Shown piece by piece: positions 7,448-55,288 of a stretch of DNA of 64,000 bases (within the stretch, counting starts at the first letter, position 1; every line of letters starts with the position of its first letter). Under the pieces are notes generated by a model. The model searched no databases, had not been told where the DNA came from, and saw only the letters and a list, made by a program, of their open reading frames with translations. Made by a program: the position numbers and the translations under genes. The stretch is from an uncultured Acidimicrobiales bacterium. GTDB lineage: Bacteria > Actinomycetota > Acidimicrobiia > Acidimicrobiales > SZUA-35. The stretch lies in contig CAVOQQ010000003.1 in the NCBI GenBank assembly GCA_963698395.1, positions 713,267 to 777,266 of the forward strand, given 5' to 3'.

Positions 7448-9841
7448 TCAGTCGCCGGAGGGTTCGGTCGTGGTCGTGGCGGGGTCGGCAGTCGTCGGTG
7501 GGATGGTGGTTTCGGTGGGAGCAGCGGTCGTCGTGGTCGTCGTGACCCCAGTCGGCGCCGTGGTCGAACCGGGATCGTCTTCGATCGTGGTGGTGGTCGC
7601 CTCCGGTGGGGGCGGCTCACAGGGCTCGGTGCTGGGCGTGACTTGCGTTTCGGGGTTCGCTGGATCGCCTTCCCCGGGATCCGGAAGCGGAGCGCACACC
7701 GGCAGCGTGGTAGTGGTCGACAACTCCGAGTTGAGCAACTGGCCCGAGAAGTTCCGCTCCACCGGCAACTCACAAGGCGGGGCCGATTCCGTCGCCCGAC
7801 GCATGAAGGCCGACCAGATCTCGGCCGGGAAATCGCCACCGTGGACCTCGATGCCTCGCACGTCGTCCATCGGCCGAACCGGCTCCCCTGGACCGCCGGT
7901 GTAGCCCATCCACACCGCAGCGGTGAGATCGCACGTGTAGCCGACGAACCACGCATCTCGGGCATCTTGGGTCGTCCCCGTCTTGCCGGCAGCGTCACGG
8001 CCGAAGTCGGCGGCTCGCCCCGTTCCGGAGGAGATGACCTGACTCATGGCGTAGGTGACCTGGCGCGCGATCGAGCCATCGACCGCGCCGACGACGTCAG
8101 GCCCACGCTCGGGACCCTCACCGCAGCGGCCGTCGTGGGGGAACCAACACACCGAGCCGTCGGGTGCTTCGATCCGCTCGATCAACACGGGGTCGAATTG
8201 ATCACCCTGATCGGCCAGCGTCGAGTAGGCGGCCGCCATGTCGAGCACCGACACCTCGCCGGAACCGAGTACCAGAGCGTTGACCGGCTCGAGTTCGGCG
8301 CTGACGCCCAGTCGTTCGGCCATGTCGACGACCGCGGTCGGACCGAGCTGCACCATCAACTGTGCATAGACCACGTTGGACGACACCCGCAGTGCGTCGG
8401 CGAGTGATCGGTACCCGTCGCTGCTGCCACCACCGCTCACCACCCAGTCGGCGCCGTTGTTCGCCCCCTCGAGCGAGATGGTGGACGGAGCAGCGAAGTA
8501 CGAGTCGGCCGAGATGCCGGCCTCGATCGCCGCGGCCAGGGCAAAGGGCTTGAAGGACGATCCCGGTTGGCGACCAGAGCCACCACCGTCTCGACCGGTG
8601 GCCAGGTTCAGCTGCGACGCAGAGAAGTCGAACCCGCCCATCATGGCGACGACCCGGCCGACCTGGTCGATCGCGACGAGCGACGCCGACGGGTCATCGG
8701 GGTTGACCCGTGGATCGACGACCTCGGTCACGCTGGTGAACGCGGCTTGCTGGAGTGCGGGATCGAGGGTCGTGTAGACCCGGAGTCCCTTGGTGTAGAG
8801 ACCGCCGTCGGGATAGAGATCGGCCAGCTCCTGGCGCACCGCCTCGACGAAGTACTCGCTGCCATCGGCACCACCCACCGACACCGGACCCGAACGATCG
8901 CTCGCTGCGATCGTGATCGCCGCCAGATCGGTCGTCGCCGCCTGGGCCGCAGCCTCAGGGGTGATGTAGCCGCCGTCGGCCATCAGTGTCAGCGTCACGT
9001 TCATGCGCCGTTCGGCCTCGACGAGGTCCTTCTTCGGATCGGCCGAGTTCGGCGAACGAATCAGTCCGGCCAGAAACGCAGCTTCGGGCAACGTGATCTG
9101 CTCGACGTTCTTGCCGAAGTAGTTCTGCGCTGCCGCTTGGACGCCGTAGGCACCGCGACCGAAGTAGATCCGGTTGAGGTAACGACGCAGGATCTCCTGC
9201 TTCGCCCCGATGCCGTCGTACTGGTTGGCCAGCTCGCGCTCCAGCTTGATCGCGAGCGTTGCCTCACGCACCTTGCGAACGACCGACGCCTCATTCCCGA
9301 CGTAGGTCAGCTTCACGTACTGCTGGGTGATGGTCGAGCCCCCCTGGGCTGCCGATCGCTCGCGGACGTCTTGATAGAGCGCTCGAGCGATGCCGAGGGG
9401 GTCGACACCCTCATGGGCGAAGAAGTCCTTGTCTTCGGTGCTGACCACGGCATCGATCAGGACCTGGGGAATCTGTTCGTAGGTGACGACCTGACGATCT
9501 TCGCCGGCAGAGAACTGGGCGATGGCGACGTCGTTGTTGCACTCCGCACCCGCGGTTCGGGTGATCTCGGCCGTGCACACGAACGTGGTTTGCGCGAGCG
9601 ACGCGAAGTCGTCGTCTTCGAGTTCGATGCGCGACAGCACGGCGATCGCCGTGAACAGACCACCGAGGCAGAACAGCCCGAACAAGAACACGACGCGGCG
9701 GAGCCGCCACAAGAGGTGTCGCTCTCGACGTGGCGTCGGGCCCGGACCACCCAGGACTCCACGATGGCTGGTTGCGCCTCCTTGCGGGCGCGCCGTCGAC
9801 GCGGCACCAGAGTTGGTTGGACGCTTGGAAGATGGCGACAA
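7448..9841 (-). CDS. ponA: class A penicillin-binding protein (glycosyltransferase + transpeptidase)
   Basis: GT51 motifs EDKDFFAHEGVD and GGSTITQQYVK, transpeptidase SSFKPF (SxxK), an N-terminal TM helix and a Thr/Pro-rich C-terminal tail. Confidence 0.95.
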   Translation of the reverse strand: MSPSSKRPTNSGAASTARPQGGATSHRGVLGGPGPTPRRERHLLWRLRRVVFLFGLFCLGGLFTAIAVLSRIELEDDDFASLAQTTFVCTAEITRTAGAECNNDVAIAQFSAGEDRQVVTYEQIPQVLIDAVVSTEDKDFFAHEGVDPLGIARALYQDVRERSAAQGGSTITQQYVKLTYVGNEASVVRKVREATLAIKLERELANQYDGIGAKQEILRRYLNRIYFGRGAYGVQAAAQNYFGKNVEQITLPEAAFLAGLIRSPNSADPKKDLVEAERRMNVTLTLMADGGYITPEAAAQAATTDLAAITIAASDRSGPVSVGGADGSEYFVEAVRQELADLYPDGGLYTKGLRVYTTLDPALQQAAFTSVTEVVDPRVNPDDPSASLVAIDQVGRVVAMMGGFDFSASQLNLATGRDGGGSGRQPGSSFKPFALAAAIEAGISADSYFAAPSTISLEGANNGADWVVSGGGSSDGYRSLADALRVSSNVVYAQLMVQLGPTAVVDMAERLGVSAELEPVNALVLGSGEVSVLDMAAAYSTLADQGDQFDPVLIERIEAPDGSVCWFPHDGRCGEGPERGPDVVGAVDGSIARQVTYAMSQVISSGTGRAADFGRDAAGKTGTTQDARDAWFVGYTCDLTAAVWMGYTGGPGEPVRPMDDVRGIEVHGGDFPAEIWSAFMRRATESAPPCELPVERNFSGQLLNSELSTTTTLPVCAPLPDPGEGDPANPETQVTPSTEPCEPPPPEATTTTIEDDPGSTTAPTGVTTTTTTAAPTETTIPPTTADPATTTTEPSGD

Positions 9842-45199: not shown

Positions 45200-45520
45200 G
45201 GCGGTGACCTCTTCAGACGTTCGACTGGCAGTCGTTCTCACGGCAGGGACCGAGTGGTCACAACCGACCGCCAAATGGTAGCGGCCCAACCACTCGCCTC
45301 CACCCGCAGGCATCGGCAACGGTGCGCGTGTGAACCCGGCGCCATGAGGCGCTCCACCCGATGTGCCCGGCCGAGGGTAGTGATGCCCACGGGTCGCCGC
45401 GTGGATGGTTCGAATGACCTATGCGCAACACGGGCAATTATGTCGATACGGTGACGAAACCCGTTCAAGGCGAAAGGTCGAACCACTCGATGGCCGACCA
45501 CGTCTGTGAAGGAGATCCCC

Positions 45521-46738
45521 TTGCTGAAGAAACGCGTTACCGGCGTGGCTGTCGCTCTCAGCGCACTCGCCTCCGCCGTCGTGGTGGTGCCCGTCTCGCC
45601 CGCAGGAGCCGAGGTCGTGGTGCACGACATCGTGCTTCCGGTCGATGCCGGCTCGCTCGATCAGGTCTACTGGACCGACACCTGGGGTGCGCCGCGCAGT
45701 GGCGGTCGCGCGCACGAAGGCGTCGACATGATGGGTCCCAAGGGCACGCCGCTGCTGGCGGCGGCCGACGGTGTCATCACGTGGTTCCGCCACGACGACG
45801 TGCGGGGCAACTACCTCGAGCTCACGGGCGACGACGGCTGGGTGTACCACTACTCCCACATGAACAACGACACGCCCGGTACCGACGACGGTGCCAACCC
45901 GTTCGAGTACGCCTATGCCCCTGGCATGGAACGCGGTGTGCGGGTCAGTGCCGGTCAGCTGATCGCCTACATGGGCGACTCGGGCAATGCCGAGAACGCG
46001 GGCTCGCACCTGCACTTCGAGATCGAGACACCAGACGGTCAGGCCATCAACCCGACGCCCAGCGTCGACGCGGCGAGGACCCGGGTGGGCATGCCGTCGA
46101 TCCCGGCCAGTCTGCTCGGTCCATTCGATTCGGCGCTCGCCCTCAGCACCGAGGTCTTCACCACCTTCACCGGCCGCGAGCCGACGTCGGCCGAGGTATC
46201 GTTGCTCGCCCATGCAGTCGTCGATGGCGGATTGGCCAACGCCATCGTCCCCTACGTCGACAGTGCGTCGTCGGTTGCACAAATCGACCGCCTGTACGTG
46301 GCGTACTTCCTTCGTCGGCCCGACTTCGGTGGACTGCAGTACTGGCTCGGCATCCGTGGTTCGGGCACCAGCGTCACCCAGATTGCCGATTCGTTCGCTG
46401 ACGGCGACGAGTTCAAGGCCCGCTACGGCAGCCTGACCTTCGGCGACTTCGTCGATCAGCTCTATCGCGACGTGTTGTCTCGCGAGCCGGATGAGGCAGG
46501 GAAGGCGTACTGGCTGGCCGAACTGGCTGCCGGGCGGGTCACACGCGGCAACATCGTCGTGCAGTTCACCGAGGGTGCCGAGCTGATCGGTCTCACGAGC
46601 AAGCGCAGCGAGGTCGTCGGCCTCATGGCGTTGTTCGGCGATACCGCACCGACCGATGCCGAGATCGAGGCATGGATTGCCGACCGGGCAACGATGTCGC
46701 TCCCCGACGCGGCCCAGGCATGGTTCCTCACGGACTGA
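45521..46738 (+). CDS. secreted M23 metallopeptidase with C-terminal DUF4214-type repeats
   Basis: Signal peptide, HEGVDM (HxxxD), SHLHFE (HxH) and two DUF4214-like repeats (…YFLRRPDFGGLQYW…, …LYRDVLSREPDEAGKAYW…). The TTG at 45521 follows GAAGGAGA; the ORF track has a GTG at 45506. Confidence 0.88.
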   Translation: MLKKRVTGVAVALSALASAVVVVPVSPAGAEVVVHDIVLPVDAGSLDQVYWTDTWGAPRSGGRAHEGVDMMGPKGTPLLAAADGVITWFRHDDVRGNYLELTGDDGWVYHYSHMNNDTPGTDDGANPFEYAYAPGMERGVRVSAGQLIAYMGDSGNAENAGSHLHFEIETPDGQAINPTPSVDAARTRVGMPSIPASLLGPFDSALALSTEVFTTFTGREPTSAEVSLLAHAVVDGGLANAIVPYVDSASSVAQIDRLYVAYFLRRPDFGGLQYWLGIRGSGTSVTQIADSFADGDEFKARYGSLTFGDFVDQLYRDVLSREPDEAGKAYWLAELAAGRVTRGNIVVQFTEGAELIGLTSKRSEVVGLMALFGDTAPTDAEIEAWIADRATMSLPDAAQAWFLTD

Positions 46739-48371: not shown

Positions 48372-48652
48372 TAGTCGAGTGTCACCACCGGTCATGGAGG
48401 CTCGGATGACCGTCGCCACCACACTGGGTGACATCCAGATGAACACGGTGCGTCGTGTCCAGCACTGCCTCACGCTGGCGCCTTGCCGCCCGCATCGGGC
48501 GGTGTCGGCCGCTCGCACCGGCGACGGTCATATCGGCGACCTTAGATGTCATACCGGCGACGTAGCCTTCGGGTCACTCGCCCGGTGTGTCGCTCCGGTG
48601 CCGCCTCGCCGATGTGCATCGGCCATCGACGCAACAACGAACGAGACACCGC

Positions 48653-50020
48653 ATGTCACCCTCCTCACCTACGAACGCCGCACCTACGAACGCCGCACCG
48701 CCACCACGAACAACGCCGTCGCCGTCGACCGCAGACTCGTCCGATGCAACGGGTGCCGATTGGCACCGGCTCGAGACCCGCCTGCTCGATCTGGTCACCG
48801 AGGCCTACGACCAGGGTTGGCAGCCGGCCGAGCTGCTACGCCAGGCGCGACGCCAGGCCACACGCCCGGCGTTCGCTCTTGCCATGCTGGCGATCGCAGC
48901 CGATCATCGATCACGCCCGAGCAGCGCCTACCACCCGCTCTGGCTCGAACAGATCGAGGGGCTCGACCTGCCGATCGACGACGCCACCGGCGGTTGGCTC
49001 CGTCGTGCGCTCGACGACCCGACGCCTCCGAGCCCCTCTCCTGTCGCCGACGGGGCGGTTGCCGGCTCGCCACGCGGCGATGCTTCACCGGGTGATCGCC
49101 GGGGCGCTCGTGCCGGTGCCGACGCGATCGCCGACGCGATCGCCGACGACGCCTGGTCGCTCTTCCTTGCCTGGGCAACGCCACCGGAGCTGCCATGCCT
49201 GCTTCCACCACCGGTGGGTGTCAGGGCGCGATTGATCGTCGACCTTGCCGGCTCGACCGCACCCAACCCCATCCTCGACAAGGTGCGGGCGCTGCTTGCC
49301 AAGGCCGAAGCCACCACGTTCGAGGCCGAGGCCGAGGCGTTCACCGTCAAGGCGCACGAGCTGATGGCGAGGCACCTGATCGACGATGCCGTTCTGGCGG
49401 CCGGCCGCCGCAGCACCGGACGCACCACGGCCCGGCCGATCACCATTCGTCTCCCGATCGACGCGCCCTACGCCGCCCCGAAAGCCACCCTCATCGCCGT
49501 GGTCGCCGATGCCGGCGGGTGCCGCGCCGTGCACCACCAGTCATTGGGTCTCACCTCGGTGGTCGGTCACGCCGCCGATGTGGCCGCCGTCGAACTGCTC
49601 TTCACCTCACTCCTGGTCCAGGCGCAGAGCGCCATGCATGAACAGGCTCGACTGGGTGAGGCGCACCGTCGCCGCGGGTTTCGATCGGCGTTTCTGACAG
49701 CGTTCGCGTACCGAGTGGGGGAGCGGCTGCGAGAAGGCAACGATGCGGTCCGTCGCTCGGTCGAGGAGGCAACCGGTCAGAGCCTCGTGCCGGTGCTCGC
49801 CGAGCGGACGGCTGCGGTCCAAGACGCCTTCGACGAGATCTTCACCGATGTCGTCACCCGACGACCCCCACGCCGGTGGGACCACCGTGGGGCAGCTTCG
49901 GGCCGCAACGCCGCCAACCGAGCCCAGCTCGACACCCCTGCGATACCCGGCGCCGGCGGTGACACGTCGCCAACCGGCCGACGGCGTCTGGCCGGTCCGA
50001 AAGACAACGGCTCCAGTTGA
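48653..50020 (+). CDS. DUF2786 domain-containing protein
   Basis: ILDKVRALLAKAEATTFEAEAEAFTVKAHELMARHLID matches the DUF2786 hallmark. The ATG at 48653 was chosen; the ORF track starts at 48587. A 15-bp tandem duplication (PTNAA x2) lies at 48666-48697. Confidence 0.75.
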   Translation: MSPSSPTNAAPTNAAPPPRTTPSPSTADSSDATGADWHRLETRLLDLVTEAYDQGWQPAELLRQARRQATRPAFALAMLAIAADHRSRPSSAYHPLWLEQIEGLDLPIDDATGGWLRRALDDPTPPSPSPVADGAVAGSPRGDASPGDRRGARAGADAIADAIADDAWSLFLAWATPPELPCLLPPPVGVRARLIVDLAGSTAPNPILDKVRALLAKAEATTFEAEAEAFTVKAHELMARHLIDDAVLAAGRRSTGRTTARPITIRLPIDAPYAAPKATLIAVVADAGGCRAVHHQSLGLTSVVGHAADVAAVELLFTSLLVQAQSAMHEQARLGEAHRRRGFRSAFLTAFAYRVGERLREGNDAVRRSVEEATGQSLVPVLAERTAAVQDAFDEIFTDVVTRRPPRRWDHRGAASGRNAANRAQLDTPAIPGAGGDTSPTGRRRLAGPKDNGSS

Positions 50021-50050
50021 CCGAGCCTTGATCTCGGCTGTTCGGATCCA

Positions 50051-50698
50051 TTGACTATGCTCTCGCCAGTCATGAGCATCCTGTCCGGTCCCTTCTCGAC
50101 GCTGCTGGCTGCACTGCTGCTCTCGGGTGCCGACAAGCTCCTGCGGCCGGACGCCGCCGCTCGAGCTCTTGCCACCGCCGGCTTGATTCCAGGACCCTCA
50201 TCCCGCCAACTCCGGACCGGACGAGCGATTGCAAGGGTCTTGGGCGTCGTCGAGGTGGCCGCCGGTGTCGGCGCCGCCTACTCCCTGCTCGTTCTCGAGG
50301 CCACCGATGCTCGGCTCGTGTCGGCGGTCGTCGGGGTGGCGCTCGTCTACCTGGGTTTCGCCTGGTTCCTCCGTCGTATCGAGGCAGTCAGTCCCGGTGC
50401 CTCGTGTGGCTGTTTCGGCAGTGGATCGGCCAGCGGCGCCCTCCACATCATCGCCAACCTCGCTGCCGCTGCGCTCGCCGTCGCCACGGCGGTCACCATC
50501 GTGGTGGCCCCGAGCGATCAATCGCTTCGCCAGTTGCTCGGCAGCGACCTCACCGTCGTTCCGTTGGTCGCCGCCGCGTTCACCGGTGGACTGATGTTGC
50601 TCCTCACACCATCACTGGTCGCCGATGTCCGGCGAGCGCGAACTGGCTCGACCTCGTCGGTGCCCCTTTTCACGGTCTCGAGGTCGATCAGTCCATGA
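50051..50698 (+). CDS. MauE/DoxX-family redox-associated membrane protein
   Basis: Four or five TM helices and the CGCFG motif characteristic of MauE-type proteins. Alternative ATG starts at 50057 and 50072. Its stop overlaps the next start (ATGA). Confidence 0.8.
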   Translation: MTMLSPVMSILSGPFSTLLAALLLSGADKLLRPDAAARALATAGLIPGPSSRQLRTGRAIARVLGVVEVAAGVGAAYSLLVLEATDARLVSAVVGVALVYLGFAWFLRRIEAVSPGASCGCFGSGSASGALHIIANLAAAALAVATAVTIVVAPSDQSLRQLLGSDLTVVPLVAAAFTGGLMLLLTPSLVADVRRARTGSTSSVPLFTVSRSISP

Positions 50699-51963
50699 CC
50701 TTCTCCACCACGCTCACCGATCACCTCGCGTCGGTTCTCGACCGGCGGACGAGCCGTCGCGGGTTCGTCGGCCGTACCGCGCTCGTCGGCAGTGCCGTGG
50801 CGGTGAGCGGCACCGACTACCTACTTCGCCCGGGTACCGCCTATGCAGCCATCTGTCGGTGTCCGCGCCAAGCGATCAACGGCAGCGAACGGCAATGCGG
50901 CTGCGGGGATCTCTGCTGTGATGGGTACACCGAGTTCTGCTGTCAGATCTACGGCGAGAACTCCTGCCCGACCGACACGGTCCTCGCCGGATGGTGGAAG
51001 GTCGACAACTCGACGTTCTGCGATGGCGCAGCCCGCTACTACATGGACTGCAACCAGACGAGCCCGAACTGCACCTGTGGTGCTCGAGGGGTGTGCCGCC
51101 CTGCCGACAACTCCTGCAGCTGTCGGTCCTGTGACAGTCGCGCCGACGGCTGCACCACGTTCCGCTACGGCAACTGCAACAACGACATTGCGTGTGTCGG
51201 ACCCATCATGTGTCGAGTCGTCACCTGTACCAAGCCGTGGGAGATCGACCCTGGCTGCTCGACAGTGGCCCGCACCGATCCGGCCACGGCCTTTCATCAC
51301 CGCCCCTGCCTCGAGGCACCGATCGAGCCGACCGCCGAAGCGCTGGCCTTCGCCTCGGCCCTCTTCATCGACTACCTCGAACGGCCACCGACCGAGAGCG
51401 AACATCTCGAATACGCCACCCGGTTCACCAGTGGTGAGAACCGCAGCCGGATCTCGTCCTCGCTGGCAACGAGCTCGGTCTATGTGGGGTTCTTCGTCGA
51501 TTCGATCTATCAATCGGTGTTCGGTCGAGCGGCAGACCCCGCCGGGCGTGACTACTGGACCGAGCGAATCGTCGGCGGCGTCACACCGGCCGAGGTGGCC
51601 ATACTCTTCTACGGCTCCGAGGAGTTCTACTCGAGTTCCGGCGGTGTGGCGGCCTACGTCACCCGGCTCTATCAAGAGATCCTCGGCCGCGAACCCGAGC
51701 CCGACGGTTTCGAATTCTGGGTCGATCAGGTCGAGGTCAACGACGATCGTCTCGGCATTGCCGACTCGTTCTACTCCTCGATCGAATCTCGCCGCCGCCG
51801 GGTTGCCGATCTGTACCGACGGTTCCTCGATCGAGAGCCCGACGACGCAGGCCTCGAGTATTGGGCCGAGCAGCTGCTCGTCGAAGACGATCTGGAGCTG
51901 GCGGCGTTCCTGTCGGGCAGTGAGGAATATCTCAACCGGGCCCTCGCCAGGTTCGCGCCATGA
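50695..51963 (+). CDS. Tat-exported cysteine-dense protein (MauA-light-chain-like region) fused to DUF4214-type repeats
   Basis: Twin-arginine signal TSRRGFVGRTALVGSAVAV, then about 24 Cys in roughly 165 aa (CRC, CGC, CC, CC, CTC, CSC...), then three DUF4214-like repeats (…YQSVFGRAADPAGRDYW…, …YQEILGREPEPDGFEFW…, …YRRFLDREPDDAGLEYW…). Confidence 0.8.
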   Translation: MTFSTTLTDHLASVLDRRTSRRGFVGRTALVGSAVAVSGTDYLLRPGTAYAAICRCPRQAINGSERQCGCGDLCCDGYTEFCCQIYGENSCPTDTVLAGWWKVDNSTFCDGAARYYMDCNQTSPNCTCGARGVCRPADNSCSCRSCDSRADGCTTFRYGNCNNDIACVGPIMCRVVTCTKPWEIDPGCSTVARTDPATAFHHRPCLEAPIEPTAEALAFASALFIDYLERPPTESEHLEYATRFTSGENRSRISSSLATSSVYVGFFVDSIYQSVFGRAADPAGRDYWTERIVGGVTPAEVAILFYGSEEFYSSSGGVAAYVTRLYQEILGREPEPDGFEFWVDQVEVNDDRLGIADSFYSSIESRRRRVADLYRRFLDREPDDAGLEYWAEQLLVEDDLELAAFLSGSEEYLNRALARFAP

Positions 51964-52006
51964 CCTGCCACGGAAGGGCCGTGAACCACCCCCGAAGGAC
52001 CGCATC

Positions 52007-52792
52007 GTGACCATCGTCGTTTGGCTTCTCGTCGCCATCGTCAGCCTGCTGTGTCTCCTCGTGGTGGGCCTCCTCCGTAGTCACGCAGTGATTCTTCGAG
52101 CACTGCACGACGCCGGTATCGACCTCGACCCCGATCGCCATGCTGCTGCTCCACCCGCCAACCGCCTTCGCCCCTCGGTCGAGTTCACTTCCGATACCGA
52201 GCCAACGATTCGCACCATCGACGGCGTCCCGGGTCCGGCGAACGTCACCGGCATGCGGGTGCCCGATCTCGTTGGTGTCACTCCCACAGGTGGAGCCCGC
52301 ACGGTCGCGGTCAACGATCGCGGCGCCACCCTCCTCGCCTTTCTCACCACTGGATGCGCAACGTGCGCCACCTTCTGGTCGGAGTTCGCCAACGGCGTGC
52401 ACCTGCCGGCCAACACTCGACTCGTCATCGTGACGAAGGGCGGCAACGACGAAAGCCCGGCCGACATCGCCGCCATGGCACCGGCGGGGGTGGTCACAAT
52501 CGCTTCGAGCGAAGCGTGGGACGACTACCGCATTCCCGTTGCTCCCTATTTCGTGCTCGTCGACGGCCGTCGCGGTGTGGTCGCCGGCGAAGGCGCAGCA
52601 CACAGCTGGGCGTTGGTCTCACAGCTGCTCGATCGTGCGCTCGCCGATGCCGGCTACGCCGAGGGCGAGCTGCGTCGGCGAGACATTCTGCTCGGACGTC
52701 GCCGCCACGAGCGAGTCGATCTCGACCTGCGAGACGCCGGCATCGTGCCCGGAGACCCGCGCCTCTACCACGGTCGTATCGAACCCGAATGA
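52007..52792 (+). CDS. membrane-anchored thioredoxin-fold protein (TlpA/MauD-like), CATC active site
   Basis: GTG start with GAAGGA 8 nt upstream, an N-terminal TM helix IVVWLLVAIVSLLCLLVVGLL and LLAFLTTGCATCATFW. Confidence 0.8.
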   Translation: MTIVVWLLVAIVSLLCLLVVGLLRSHAVILRALHDAGIDLDPDRHAAAPPANRLRPSVEFTSDTEPTIRTIDGVPGPANVTGMRVPDLVGVTPTGGARTVAVNDRGATLLAFLTTGCATCATFWSEFANGVHLPANTRLVIVTKGGNDESPADIAAMAPAGVVTIASSEAWDDYRIPVAPYFVLVDGRRGVVAGEGAAHSWALVSQLLDRALADAGYAEGELRRRDILLGRRRHERVDLDLRDAGIVPGDPRLYHGRIEPE

Positions 52793-52872
52793 GCAGCTCC
52801 GTCCTCGTCATCGGCATGGTGGCAGCGGTTCTCGGTGCCATTCGATCGACCTGGTCACCCTGAGGTGAGTCG

Positions 52873-53472
52873 ATGCTGTCCAGCATCCACCCCCTCGGTG
52901 AGCGGGGTCGACGAAACAACTTCGCGACGACCGCCGGAGCGTTCGTCATCGGCAGCCTGTTCGGTGGCGCGCTGACCGGATTCGTGTTCGGCGCTGCCGG
53001 CGAAGCCCTCGATCGAGTCATCGGGCCCATCGGCGAGCGTCAGCGCCTCGTCGTGCTCCTGTTCGTCGGTGTTGTTGCGCTCGGTTTCGATCTGAGTGGC
53101 CGGTCGCTGCCCTCGATCGAGCGACAGGTCAACGAGAACTGGCTCGGTGAGTTCCGGGGCTGGGTCTACGGGCTCGGTTTTGGCGTGCAGTTGGGCGCCG
53201 GAATCGCCACCTACATCACCGCTTCCGTCGTGCTGCTCTGGTTGATGGCCATGCTCGTCGTCGGATCGGTCGCTGCCGCCGTGCTCATCGGCGCGACCTT
53301 TGGCTTGATCCGTGGGTCCTCCATCGTCTTCGCTCGGTCGATCACGAGTCCCGAACGTCTGGTTGCGCTCCATCGCCGGCTGCATCAGTCGGTCGGTCGT
53401 GTGCGGGTGCTCACTCGCGCCGCCCTCGCGGCCTTGACCGTCGCCACGGCCGTGGTTGCCGTCGGCGCATGA
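52873..53472 (+). CDS. polytopic membrane protein; the ORF continues in frame upstream across a TGA to an ATG at 52789
   Basis: 199-aa ORF with at least 5 hydrophobic helices. The 24-codon ORF 52789..52863 (MSSSVLVIGMVAAVLGAIRSTWSP) is in the same frame and separated only by TGA plus 3 codons (see findings). Confidence 0.75.
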   Translation: MLSSIHPLGERGRRNNFATTAGAFVIGSLFGGALTGFVFGAAGEALDRVIGPIGERQRLVVLLFVGVVALGFDLSGRSLPSIERQVNENWLGEFRGWVYGLGFGVQLGAGIATYITASVVLLWLMAMLVVGSVAAAVLIGATFGLIRGSSIVFARSITSPERLVALHRRLHQSVGRVRVLTRAALAALTVATAVVAVGA

Positions 53473-53485
53473 AAGGACATCGAGC

Positions 53486-53971
53486 GTGAATCAGCGCAAC
53501 GACGACTCCTCGCTCACCATGATGCGCACCGCTGCGATGCGACTCGGCCTGCCGCCGGGGTGGGAAGCCGAGATCGATGCGGGCTCGGGCGAGGCCGAGG
53601 CCGCCGGCCCCTCGGTGTCCACGCCCCGTGTGCATGTCGCCAACTTCGCACTGCCGGCCGAGCGAGGCGACTTCGGCAGCGGTGCCGTCGAGCGAATGCA
53701 GTCAGGCAACGTACTGATCTGCTTGCTCGAGGAAGACCGGTCCGTGATCGGCACCCGTTTGTTCGATCACGAGGGGCTGCCGGTTCTCACGGTCGACGAC
53801 TTCTCGCCGACGGGCATGCAACGTCCGATCCGTGGGCAGTCGGGAGCCCAGAAGTTCTTCCATGCCAACGGACGTGCCTTTGCGCTCTATGTCGTCGTCG
53901 GCAGCCACCTCTCCCGAGCGTCGTTCATCGACGAGATCAACCGGGTCATTGCCGCCATCGAGATCGTCTGA
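53486..53971 (+). CDS. hypothetical protein
   Basis: In-frame GTG with GAAAGGA 9 nt upstream, 161 aa, coding-like codon usage, no recognised motif. Confidence 0.55.
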   Translation: MNQRNDDSSLTMMRTAAMRLGLPPGWEAEIDAGSGEAEAAGPSVSTPRVHVANFALPAERGDFGSGAVERMQSGNVLICLLEEDRSVIGTRLFDHEGLPVLTVDDFSPTGMQRPIRGQSGAQKFFHANGRAFALYVVVGSHLSRASFIDEINRVIAAIEIV

Positions 53972-53981
53972 AGCCGGCCAG

Positions 53982-53999
53982 GGGAGTTCTTCGACTCCC
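53982..53999. terminator. short stem-loop between convergent genes
   Basis: GGGAGT-TCTTCG-ACTCCC, a 6-bp stem. Weak. Confidence 0.3.
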
Positions 54000-54004
54000 T
54001 TCGG

Positions 54005-54301
54005 TCAGTCGATCACGACGGTCAAGGACACCTCCACCGTCTCGCCGACGTCAACGCCGATCCGCTTGCGAATGTCCTTCTTCACCGGGAGCACGTAGGG
54101 CCCGGCGTTCTTCTGCGGAAAGACCGATGTCTTCCACTCGGTTCGGCCGATGCTCACGCGGACTCGGACGGAGCCGAAGCCACCGACGTCGGGGGCCAGG
54201 TCCCGAATGATCTCGCTCTCGTCTTCAGGGACGGTGAGGAAGACCCAGGAGCCATTCGAGTGCAACCACAGCGGCGCGTCGAAGTCGAAGGTCGGCTCCA
54301 T
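54005..54301 (-). CDS. DUF1905 family protein
   Basis: WVFLTVPEDESEIIRDL...GFGSVRVRVSIGRTEWKTSVFPQKNAGPYVLPVKKDIRK. The Met at 54301 avoids overlap with the upstream cupin gene. Confidence 0.8.
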   Translation of the reverse strand: MEPTFDFDAPLWLHSNGSWVFLTVPEDESEIIRDLAPDVGGFGSVRVRVSIGRTEWKTSVFPQKNAGPYVLPVKKDIRKRIGVDVGETVEVSLTVVID

Positions 54302-54308
54302 CGGTGCC

Positions 54309-54848
54309 TCAGCTGATTCCGCTGTGGTTGGCACCCACCAACACCACCACCATCAGGCAGGTCTCGTCGAAGGGATTGCGCCATGCGTGCCGAGTGCCGT
54401 TCTGGATCACCGTGTCGCCGGCGCTCAGCTCACGAGTCTCGCCGTCGTCGAGCTCGAGCACGACCCGGCCCGAGACCACGAACTCGTAGTCGACGCTTGC
54501 AGTGGTGTGCATCCCCGGCGCGTCGGGCTCCATGTGGGCGGCCATGCCCGGAAGCACGGTTTCCATCTCGGCAATCGCCGCTTCGATGTCGAGGTCGTCG
54601 AAATCGATCTCCCCATCGGGCGGGACGCTGAAGAGTCCGAATCGGAAGCCGCCGACTGGCGGAAAGTACTGCACTGCGGGTGGAGCCGAACCGTCGTCGG
54701 GAAAGCTCACGGTGTCGTCGGCGCCCCAGAGCCGGAAGAAGTCCATGCCGGGAAGCAGCCCAATGTTGATCGGCTCGATGACCTCATCGCTTGCGAACAC
54801 TGCCTTGCCGGACTCGTCATGACCGGTCACCACTCGTCTGATTCCCAT
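54309..54848 (-). CDS. cupin domain protein
   Basis: Internal Met MGIRRVVTGHDESGKAVF.... C-terminal cupin strands (MHTTASVDYEFVVSGRVVLELDDGETRELSAGDTVIQNGTRHAWRN). Confidence 0.8.
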   Translation of the reverse strand: MGIRRVVTGHDESGKAVFASDEVIEPINIGLLPGMDFFRLWGADDTVSFPDDGSAPPAVQYFPPVGGFRFGLFSVPPDGEIDFDDLDIEAAIAEMETVLPGMAAHMEPDAPGMHTTASVDYEFVVSGRVVLELDDGETRELSAGDTVIQNGTRHAWRNPFDETCLMVVVLVGANHSGIS

Positions 54849-54943: not shown

Positions 54944-55288
54944 ATGCTTTGGCTGATGGGCCCCCTCGCTCTCGTTTCCGGCTCGTCGTTTCTCTTCTAC
55001 GGCTACGAGACCCTGTTCAAACAACCCCCTCGGGGTGAATTCGAGCGCTACGGCATGCCTCGGGTTCGACGCTTCGTCGGTGCGACGCAGCTGCTCGGGG
55101 GCGTCGGCGTACTGATCGGACTTCTCATCGCGCCCCTTGGCGCAGCAGCCGCGCTTGGGCTGGCACTGATGATGGCCCTGGGGTTGGTGGTTCGATACCG
55201 AATCCACGATGCCCCACGCTTGATGGTGCCGGCAGCCACGCTCGGTCTGATCAATGCAGTGCTGGTGGTGCTCTTCTCGATGCAGTAA
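54944..55288 (+). CDS. DoxX-like small membrane protein
   Basis: 114 aa with four hydrophobic helices, beginning LFYGYETLFKQPPRGEFERYGMP. Confidence 0.7.
   Translation: MLWLMGPLALVSGSSFLFYGYETLFKQPPRGEFERYGMPRVRRFVGATQLLGGVGVLIGLLIAPLGAAAALGLALMMALGLVVRYRIHDAPRLMVPAATLGLINAVLVVLFSMQ

Follow-up and report, generated by a model that had tools for sequence, protein, structure and literature searches.

A conserved MauFED-type gene module of Acidimicrobiia with a cysteine-rich exported protein as its probable client and a predicted MauF-like selenoprotein

We describe a five-gene module, here called g1 to g5, on the forward strand of a 64,000-nucleotide stretch of DNA from an uncultured Acidimicrobiales bacterium (assembly GCA_963698395.1, contig CAVOQQ010000003.1, positions 713,267 to 777,266; the window below, whose own numbering is used throughout). 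The module is conserved in Acidimicrobiia, and its layout follows that of mauF-mauE-mauD-mauA in the mau clusters, the loci of methylamine dehydrogenase (MADH). Profile and alignment comparisons identify g1, g3 and g4 as homologues of MauE, MauD and MauF, and g4 as a selenoprotein in which UGA replaces the Cys codon of the MauF motif STWSPCG. It represents a MauFED variant that has a new predicted client, the Cys-rich exported protein g2, and contains a previously unlisted selenoprotein; this variant is widespread in one bacterial class. The features of the module are as follows.

50051 to 50698, forward strand: g1, MauE-family membrane protein with a CGCFG motif, starting at TTG 50051 or ATG 50057
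50695 to 50850, forward strand: leader of g2, in which the twin-arginine motif TSRRGF follows a long n-region and precedes an h-region and the conserved site RPGTAYA/A
50851 to 51330, forward strand: Cys-rich domain of g2, with 24 Cys, belonging to no Pfam family
51331 to 51963, forward strand: C-terminal tail of g2, with three DUF4214 repeats
52007 to 52792, forward strand: g3, membrane-anchored thioredoxin-like protein with a CATC motif, MauD-like, starting at GTG
52789 to 53472, forward strand: g4, MauF-homologous polytopic membrane selenoprotein of 227 aa, with selenocysteine (Sec) at residue 25
52861 to 52863, forward strand: in-frame UGA of g4, read as Sec
52872 to 52905, forward strand: element resembling a Sec insertion sequence (SECIS), with hairpin 1 at 52872-52887 and hairpin 2 at 52891-52905
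~53486 to 53971, forward strand: g5, soluble protein of ~150-160 aa, starting at GTG 53486 or ATG 53519

Conservation of the module and identity of the helper proteins

Using the Cys-rich gene as search bait, we collected 83 related loci with 10-kb flanks (labelled L001 and so on; L084 and L085 denote two canonical mau clusters used for comparison) and searched them by tblastn with the window proteins; 62 loci had enough downstream sequence to be informative. Synteny of the module extends over more than 60 genomes of the class. Both g3 and g5 are present in 60 of these 62 loci and g4 in 50, and the commonest gene order is Cys-rich gene, g3, g4, g5. In 69 of 76 loci the gene immediately before the Cys-rich gene is MauE-like, as identified with an iterated profile, and four more loci have such a gene at another position. 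Helper genes flank the Cys-rich gene in ~97% of the informative loci, often with translational coupling, and the gene order is kept down to ~40% identity. A preliminary description of this DNA had proposed such a survey of gene neighbourhoods, which returned strong co-occurrence of the Cys-rich gene with the MauE gene, g3, g4 and g5. Of the two observations which that description named as jointly counting against its view, a Cys-rich domain without similarity to amine-dehydrogenase light chains and genes that do not co-occur in related genomes, the first is seen at the sequence level and the second is not.

The genes that accompany MauF, MauE and MauD in methylamine dehydrogenase loci were also sought. 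Searches by tblastn with MauB, MauG, MauC, MauA and MauJ from the two canonical mau clusters (gene order mauF-B-E-D-A-C-J-G) found none of them in the window, which agrees with the earlier remark that no MauB, MauG or amicyanin gene is present there, and the same searches detected none of the five genes, mauB, mauG and the amicyanin gene among them, in the 83 loci with their flanks (1.2 Mb). All-against-all clustering of open reading frames (ORFs) from 84 loci yielded no further family present in more than 14 of the 84, and no conserved flavoprotein, haem protein or radical-SAM gene beside the module.

Within the window, the coupled four-gene layout given in the preliminary description is borne out. 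The g1 TGA overlaps the g2 ATG at 50695 (ATGA), the g3 TGA overlaps the g4 ATG at 52789, and a 43-nt spacer (51964-52006), in which an AAGGA motif precedes the g3 GTG at 52007, separates g3 from g2 (422 aa, 50695-51963). Only by decoding of the in-frame TGA at 52861-52863 does g4 continue as far as 53472. That description had also correctly assigned g1 to the MauE type with CGCFG, g3 to membrane-anchored thioredoxin-fold proteins with CATC and the architecture of MauD, and g4 to polytopic membrane proteins; it had missed the MauF homology of g4, the conserved Sec codon within it, and the fifth conserved gene at ~53486-53971. The product of this gene, g5, lacks a signal peptide, had no match in searches of Pfam, NCBIfam and PDB sequences, and does not resemble MauJ or MauL. 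A scan of 49800-54400 for promoters and terminators found none. The DUF2786 gene upstream (48587-50020) was considered as a module member and rejected, as it is not conserved elsewhere.

The g1 protein matches the Pfam MauE family (PF07291) with an E-value of 5.4e-11 (43.3 bits against a cut-off of 27), and its family profile aligns with canonical MauE at an hhalign probability of 91% (P 1.2e-6); the CGCFG motif corresponds to DCGCF in canonical MauE. Across 81 MauE-like proteins, the mean number of Lys and Arg residues is 4.1 in loop 1 and 2.2 in loop 3 but 0.05 in loop 2 and 0.25 in loop 4, so that loop 3, which carries the CGC motif, is predicted by the positive-inside rule to be cytoplasmic. 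In canonical MauE (L084 and L085), Arg and Lys residues likewise surround the loop with the CGCF motif, as in RGRTAIDCGCFRNGMK. The naming used by NCBI places MauE and DoxX proteins in one group of redox-associated membrane proteins. A small membrane protein of the DoxX_2 family (PF13564, E 1.1e-10) is encoded on the forward strand at 54944-55288, 1 kb downstream of g5.

The g3 protein combines an N-terminal hydrophobic anchor with a CATC motif, where MauD has CPVC, and the end of its anchor (GLLRSH) resembles that of MauD (GLLRQV). Its sole NCBIfam match is to MauD (TIGR02661), with an E-value of 0.002, or 2.7e-4 for the L001 orthologue. A hidden Markov model of the g3 family scores two MauD proteins at 33 and 26 bits, and comparison of the g3 and MauD families by hhalign gives a probability of 93% (P 3.1e-7) over 114 columns.

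The g4 protein is a homologue of MauF. A blastp comparison with MauF gives 31% identity over 177 aa (E 1.3e-12), a profile of 56 g4 orthologues scores two MauF proteins at 92 and 80 bits, and family-to-family hhalign reaches a probability of 99.1% (P 1.5e-18) over 169 columns. Both families share the motif STWSP[C/U]G after the first transmembrane helix (GGLLSTWSPCGYSSLC in MauF and GAIRSTWSP*GESMLSS in g4, the asterisk marking the UGA), and the UGA of g4 aligns with the Cys of MauF STWSPCG. Since g4 is a MauF homologue, all three helpers of the MADH light chain have counterparts in the module. MauF itself has no Pfam or NCBIfam model, and g4 gave no NCBIfam match. Weak matches to DsbD_2 (PF13386) occur in 5 of 76 g4 relatives (best E 1.9e-6) and a few relatives match DsbD_TM (PF02683); the window g4 gave no DsbD_2 match in a Pfam scan. 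In an AlphaFold2 (AF2) model of a Cys-form relative (predicted local distance difference test score, pLDDT, 93.7), the Cys begins a short helix right after the first transmembrane helix. A Foldseek search with the g4-family model returned nothing significant; among the matches listed, CcdA (PDB 5vkv) had the best TM-score (0.27/0.30; E 2.0) and the highest identity. Judged by a profile match together with two membrane-embedded Cys residues, g4 is not assigned to the DsbD/CcdA superfamily.

One alternative is that g1, g3 and g4 serve thiol redox chemistry of the envelope in general, as CcdA-ResA/TlpA or DsbB-DsbA do, and that g2 is a mere frequent neighbour. MauE-family proteins are widespread outside mau clusters, g3 is only weakly MauD-like, some g4 relatives have distant DsbD_2 matches and a separate DoxX_2 gene lies close downstream, all of which would suit such a system. 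Against this, the helpers flank the bait gene in nearly all informative loci with their order kept, and the parallel adjacency of mauE, mauD and mauA argues for a dedicated pairing. We regard a general system as unlikely.

Two groups of loci deserve separate mention. In g4-less loci of the Actinospongicola type (L001:6320-7468, L002:6338-7471 and also L014), a gene for an FG-GAP repeat protein of ~380 aa (PF13517, E 1.6e-24) is translationally coupled upstream of the MauE gene and may encode an alternative or additional client or partner. Four further loci (L053, L059, L068 and L072) are labelled as metagenome-assembled genomes of Verrucomicrobiales, Acidobacteriota or Gemmatimonadaceae. Their genes are 50-54% identical to those of the window and keep its gene order and UGA, and they are probably mis-binned contigs of Acidimicrobiia and not cases of lateral transfer.

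The cysteine-rich exported protein

The g2 protein passes the twin-arginine translocation (Tat) signal model TIGR01409 (17.5 bits against a cut-off of 16.7). It had been described earlier as a Tat-signal protein with about 24 Cys in ~165 residues followed by three DUF4214-like repeats; the count is exactly 24, and the tail matches PF13946 (DUF4214) in three stretches (E 5.8e-32). Alignments A1 and A2 of the Cys-rich family show the invariant motifs CCDGYTEFCC, CP..T..GWW, RYYMDCN and FRYG.CN. Twenty Cys are conserved, the total is even and lies between 20 and 26 in 63 of 67 members, and no His is conserved among the 67. The even count and the lack of a conserved His fit 10-13 disulfides better than metal binding, and the domain of g2 is predicted to hold ~12 disulfide bonds. 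An AF2 model of the domain (pLDDT 85; predicted TM-score 0.81) is a confident beta-rich fold without cofactor or ligand.

The family is large. With a word-indexed search we obtained 81 relatives, nearly all of them from Acidimicrobiales. Exhaustive searching with the family profile gave 628 cluster representatives at E <= 1e-3, of which 303 at E <= 1e-30, and species genomes contained at least 570 stretches encoding the domain. Against PDB sequences, the only match of g2 was one to Tsp1 (E 0.84), attributable to chance, and the family profile gave only a Tat-signal similarity to NosZ and no light chain. What follows the Cys-rich domain varies. DUF4214 repeats occur only in the closest loci (9 of 62), and other members carry SLH, CWB2 cell-wall-binding, ricin or Ig-like domains or unassigned sequence of up to ~500 residues, so that the members look like cell-surface proteins that share an N-terminal head.

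Several observations concern these tails and the gene boundaries. A secreted M23 peptidase encoded on the forward strand 4 kb upstream of the module (45506-46738) contains DUF4214 twice, with 27% identity to the g2 tail, and DUF4214 is therefore apparently a reusable surface or cell-wall module in this host. In P0072, P0080, P0347, P0355 and P0398, MauE and the Cys-rich domain lie in one ORF, or the Cys-rich domain begins ~180 residues in; these may be true fusions or gene calls frameshifted across the ATGA overlap. In L003, a 47-aa ORF after the Cys-rich gene (8896-9039) repeats near-exactly the last ~40 residues of the Cys-rich protein (TSLEDGTF.HVWGTVNNV.YHWWQF.PGKGTNPA.NWFVE.LP) and is a local duplication of the C-terminal tail.

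We asked how the Cys-rich domain relates to MauA, the MADH light chain, since the preliminary description had seen in one of its segments a loose parallel to the cofactor region of MauA. In its strongest form, this idea makes the domain a divergent amine-dehydrogenase light chain with a quinone on W100/W101, similar to tryptophan tryptophylquinone (TTQ) or cysteine tryptophylquinone, in a surface quinoprotein that stands alone or is anchored by its tail; MauE, MauD and MauF would then keep their classical role, and the cofactor would be made without MauG. W100, W101, D118 and C119 are indeed invariant, within CP..T..GWW...RYYMDC, and relaxed-gap alignment places this segment onto CPPGT..W57...YRD76C77 of MauA. 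However, none of the 67 family members matched the light-chain family PF02975 (Me-amine-dh_L) at E <= 10. With the MauA sequence confirmed against PDB 1mg2_B and a MauA family alignment built for the purpose, we ran hhalign on the mature cores with default, global and relaxed-gap settings. Comparison of the mature cores aligned only G.N.CPxGT (12 columns, P 0.015), and relaxed gap penalties gave 48 collinear columns that pair CDG..CC, CPxxT, W101 with W57, YMDC with YRDC, and CxC. Taken over all settings, the collinear motifs DG..C.C, CPPGT, W, Y.DC, C.C and (F/Y)R..N.DI..C.G are appealing. In two sets of 120 column-shuffled controls, however, 3 and 14 shuffles reached the core scores, and because Cys-rich shuffles do so, we do not claim homology of the cores to MauA; the proposed parallel to the cofactor region is not established. 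W100 or W101 can be aligned with the TTQ residue W57 in an alignment that is not significant, the position aligned with the second TTQ residue, W108, is Ala, and W182 is kept in 88% of members.

Structure and leader comparisons are more suggestive of a link. The comparison of a predicted structure with light chains, another of the checks proposed earlier, put the aromatic amine dehydrogenase light chain 2agw_H at the top of 350,542 PDB chains searched by Foldseek with the AF2 model, but the match is weak (E 2.4, TM-score 0.25/0.31, root mean square deviation 7.8 Å). Of the profile searches proposed with it, those for MauE and DUF4214 gave matches, whereas MauD fell below its cut-off and Me-amine-dh_L was not matched at all. 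The g2 leader aligns with the MauA family leader at an hhalign probability of 97% in full alignments, and the n-region without its twin-arginine motif scores 21.0 against 6.3 ± 1.4 for shuffles, none of 100 reaching it, so that the likeness to the MauA leader goes beyond the generic Tat consensus. Whether g2 and MauA precursors share a remote common ancestor is, in our judgement, evenly balanced, and the Cys-rich domain is not filed as a member of the light-chain family.

The adjacency of homologues of all three helpers and the MauA-like leader would thus be expected of a light chain, as would the top fold match. Besides the insignificant core similarity, the absence of any conserved MauG, heavy-chain, amicyanin, flavoprotein or radical-SAM gene within 10 kb in the 83 loci speaks against it, and the SLH and CWB2 tails point to a structural or binding surface protein. 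We consider a divergent quinone-bearing light chain improbable. A related and quite improbable form of the idea is a diverged light chain with a Trp-derived quinone or another cross-link made without MauG, oxidised by MauFED-type machinery at the cytoplasmic side before Tat export. If true, it would represent a new class of stand-alone surface quinoprotein and would redefine the roles of MauF, MauE and MauD in classical MADH biogenesis.

The Cys-rich domain could instead be a metal- or cluster-binding Tat cargo, metallothionein- or Fe-S-like, loaded in the cytoplasm, for which the helpers would keep thiols reduced or deliver metal. Cytoplasmic loading would explain the Tat signal, and the extreme Cys density, the predicted position of the g1 CGC motif and the g4 Sec region near the cytoplasmic face, and a CopC gene and a P-type ATPase gene nearby in two loci can be read in its favour. 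The CopC and ATPase neighbours are not conserved, though, the domain lacks the CxxCxxC...CP spacing of ferredoxins, AF2 folds it confidently into a beta-rich structure without ligands, and the even Cys count and missing conserved His have been noted above. This makes a metal cargo very unlikely in our view.

Selenocysteine in the MauF homologue

The codon aligned with the MauF Cys is TGA in 45 of 58 orthologous genes (57 loci and the window) and TGC or TGT in the other 13. The frame is conserved as coding sequence both before the TGA, where it covers the 24 upstream codons and ends in RSTWSP, and after it (GESMLSSIHPLGER). Because g1, g2, g3 and g4 all use TGA as their normal stop, the internal TGA must be recoded locally and not through a variant genetic code. 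Apart from Sec25, g4 contains no Cys.

Two hairpins common to the UGA forms lie 9 to 45 nt after the UGA and represent a candidate SECIS-like element. Helix 1 does not vary, synonymous sites included; its Ser codon is always AGC where the Cys forms have TCN or ACC. Helix 2 contains two covarying pairs (15 cells) with compensatory changes from C-G to U-A and from G-C to C-G. In the hairpin alignment 98.7% of cells are paired, and the covariation was reached by none of 500 shuffles. Consensus folding by alifold gave -12.8 kcal/mol for the UGA forms and -0.6 kcal/mol for the Cys forms, which lack this structure. The RNA downstream of the window's UGA folded alone has a z-score of -0.59, which is uninformative at this G+C content, so the case for the element depends on the comparative data. 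A search of the window with Rfam detected no SECIS family.

The machinery for Sec insertion is linked to the module in some genomes. ARAGORN detected tRNA-Sec (anticodon UCA) in four loci (L058, L067, L071 and L076), and no other tRNA is as common in the 83 loci (4 of 13). In L067 (5636-9747) and L076, selD-selA-selB-tRNA(Sec) lies immediately upstream of the module on the same strand, and in L058 (13772-18520) and L071 the same set lies just downstream on the opposite strand. Because the sel operon adjoins it in some genomes, the MauF-like protein may be a principal reason for keeping the Sec machinery there. In the literature on selenoproteins of Acidimicrobiia we found only a 2026 preprint on Actinomarina, which describes Sec machinery in another order of the class, and our search found no paper linking MauF, MauE or CcdA to selenoproteins. 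Term searches of the 2026 review of the prokaryotic selenoproteome (PMC13188914) returned no entry for a MauF, methylamine, CcdA or transmembrane family.

Public gene calls shorten the Sec forms to ORFs of 195-208 aa that start at a Met after the UGA; the window product, for example, is recorded with 199 aa (P0202; 52873-53472), and the proteins concerned include P0202 to P0240. Named "hypothetical protein" or "MFS family permease", these ORFs lose the first transmembrane helix and the active-site residue. That the TGA is a sequencing error or an inactivating mutation, and the real gene the 199-aa ORF from ATG 52873, would agree with these calls (P0202 and relatives of ~195-208 aa) and with the lack of a tRNA-Sec or sel gene in the window, but this is effectively refuted, and has a negligible chance of being right, given the recurrence of this TGA in 45 independent genomes, which keep the 24 codons before it in frame, the Cys of the other orthologues and of MauF at this position, covarying SECIS-like hairpins in the TGA forms only, and a sel operon with tRNA-Sec adjoining the module in four loci.

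A putative maturation relay and its relation to known systems

On balance, we consider it probable that the module encodes a MauFED-type thiol/selenol-disulfide relay dedicated to the maturation of g2, a surface protein with many disulfides. The proposal of a dedicated maturation system for a disulfide-rich exported protein without a heavy chain had been made in the preliminary description; synteny and the absent genes support it, and the MauF homology of g4 strengthens it further. In Methylobacterium extorquens and Paracoccus denitrificans, mauF, mauE and mauD mutants reportedly fail specifically to accumulate the MADH light chain. In the module, g1, g3 and g4 would form a relay dedicated to g2. 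The CxxC of g3 would form or shuffle the 10-13 disulfides of the Cys-rich domain, the CxC of g1 would couple g3 to the membrane redox pool, and g4, as a distant DsbD/CcdA-like protein, would pass redox equivalents through its single Sec, which may make the exchange faster than Cys would. The matured g2 would be displayed on, or released from, the cell surface by way of its variable C-terminal tail, and g5 could be a cytoplasmic accessory protein.

A number of points weigh against this proposal. The score of g3 (17.6 bits) is far from the curated cut-off of the MauD equivalog (188.6), and g3 could be a generic TlpA/ResA-like protein. The g4 gene is absent from ~12 of 62 loci, for example that of Actinospongicola halichondriae, and neither sel genes nor, by Rfam and ARAGORN, tRNA-Sec were detected within the 64-kb window. 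The single redox residue of g4 compares with two Cys in CcdA and DsbD, so that a relay of the CcdA type would need a partner thiol. The charge-based topology places the g1 CGC motif in a cytoplasmic loop, and a cytoplasmic CGCF, as predicted here, is unexpected for a presumed periplasmic disulfide factor. Lastly, Tat normally carries folded proteins, which sits badly with oxidation of g2 after export.

The last two points bear on where g2 would be oxidised. The g4 Sec segment borders a positively charged loop, and this, the topology of the CGC motif, the absence of a signal peptide from g5 and the Tat signal of the client make oxidation at the cytoplasmic face before export a serious alternative. 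We lean slightly towards oxidation after export. The folding of a Tat substrate with a dozen predicted disulfides is a mechanistic puzzle.

To our knowledge, the chemistry of MauF, MauE and MauD has never been defined, although they have been recognised as necessary for the MADH light chain since the 1990s. The module offers a new way to find out what they do. The natural Sec/Cys pair at STWSPCG marks this residue of MauF as redox-catalytic, and the MauFED machinery appears not to be tied to amine dehydrogenases, serving in Acidimicrobiia a second large exported family (628 cluster representatives, no Pfam model) with 10-13 predicted disulfides. The MauF-like selenoprotein, which term searches did not locate in the family table of the selenoproteome review (PMC13188914), has no NCBIfam match and is shortened in public annotation.

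Among known systems, the mau clusters of Methylobacterium, Paracoccus and Hyphomicrobium are most similar to the module. They share with it the MauE family (by Pfam), the MauD-like family (hhalign 93%) and the MauF family (99.1%), together with the MauE CGCF and MauF STWSP(C/U)G motifs, and they too encode, beside the helpers in co-directional, tightly packed genes, a small protein that is rich in Cys and starts with a long Tat leader. Unlike them, the module lacks MauB, MauG, amicyanin, MauJ, MauL, MauM and MauN at the level of the loci and has the extra gene g5. The client also differs, being a domain of ~160 aa that has 20-26 Cys, no detectable PF02975 and variable tails. The MauF homologue contains Sec and is without the second Cys found in MauF (CGYSSLC), and the hosts are Acidimicrobiia and not Proteobacteria.

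The pathway from CcdA/DsbD to ResA/TlpA/CcmG also combines a polytopic protein, with Pro-Cys at a helix break after the first transmembrane helix, and an anchored thioredoxin-fold CxxC protein. It differs from the module in having two Cys where g4 has one Sec; the module lies outside any cytochrome c maturation context and adds a MauE partner. As in the pathway from DsbB or VKOR to DsbA, a membrane protein with paired Cys (the CxC of g1) and a thioredoxin-fold CxxC protein could oxidise a secreted protein with many disulfides. In contrast to DsbB and VKOR, to which MauE has no detected relation and whose Cys pairs face outward, the g1 CxC is predicted to be cytoplasmic, and the module looks specific for its client and not general. 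Among membrane selenoproteins, the MerT-like, YeeE/YedE and SO_0444 families, listed in PMC13188914, resemble g4 in being polytopic membrane proteins with a single Sec and Cys-containing orthologues, and g4 belongs to a different family.

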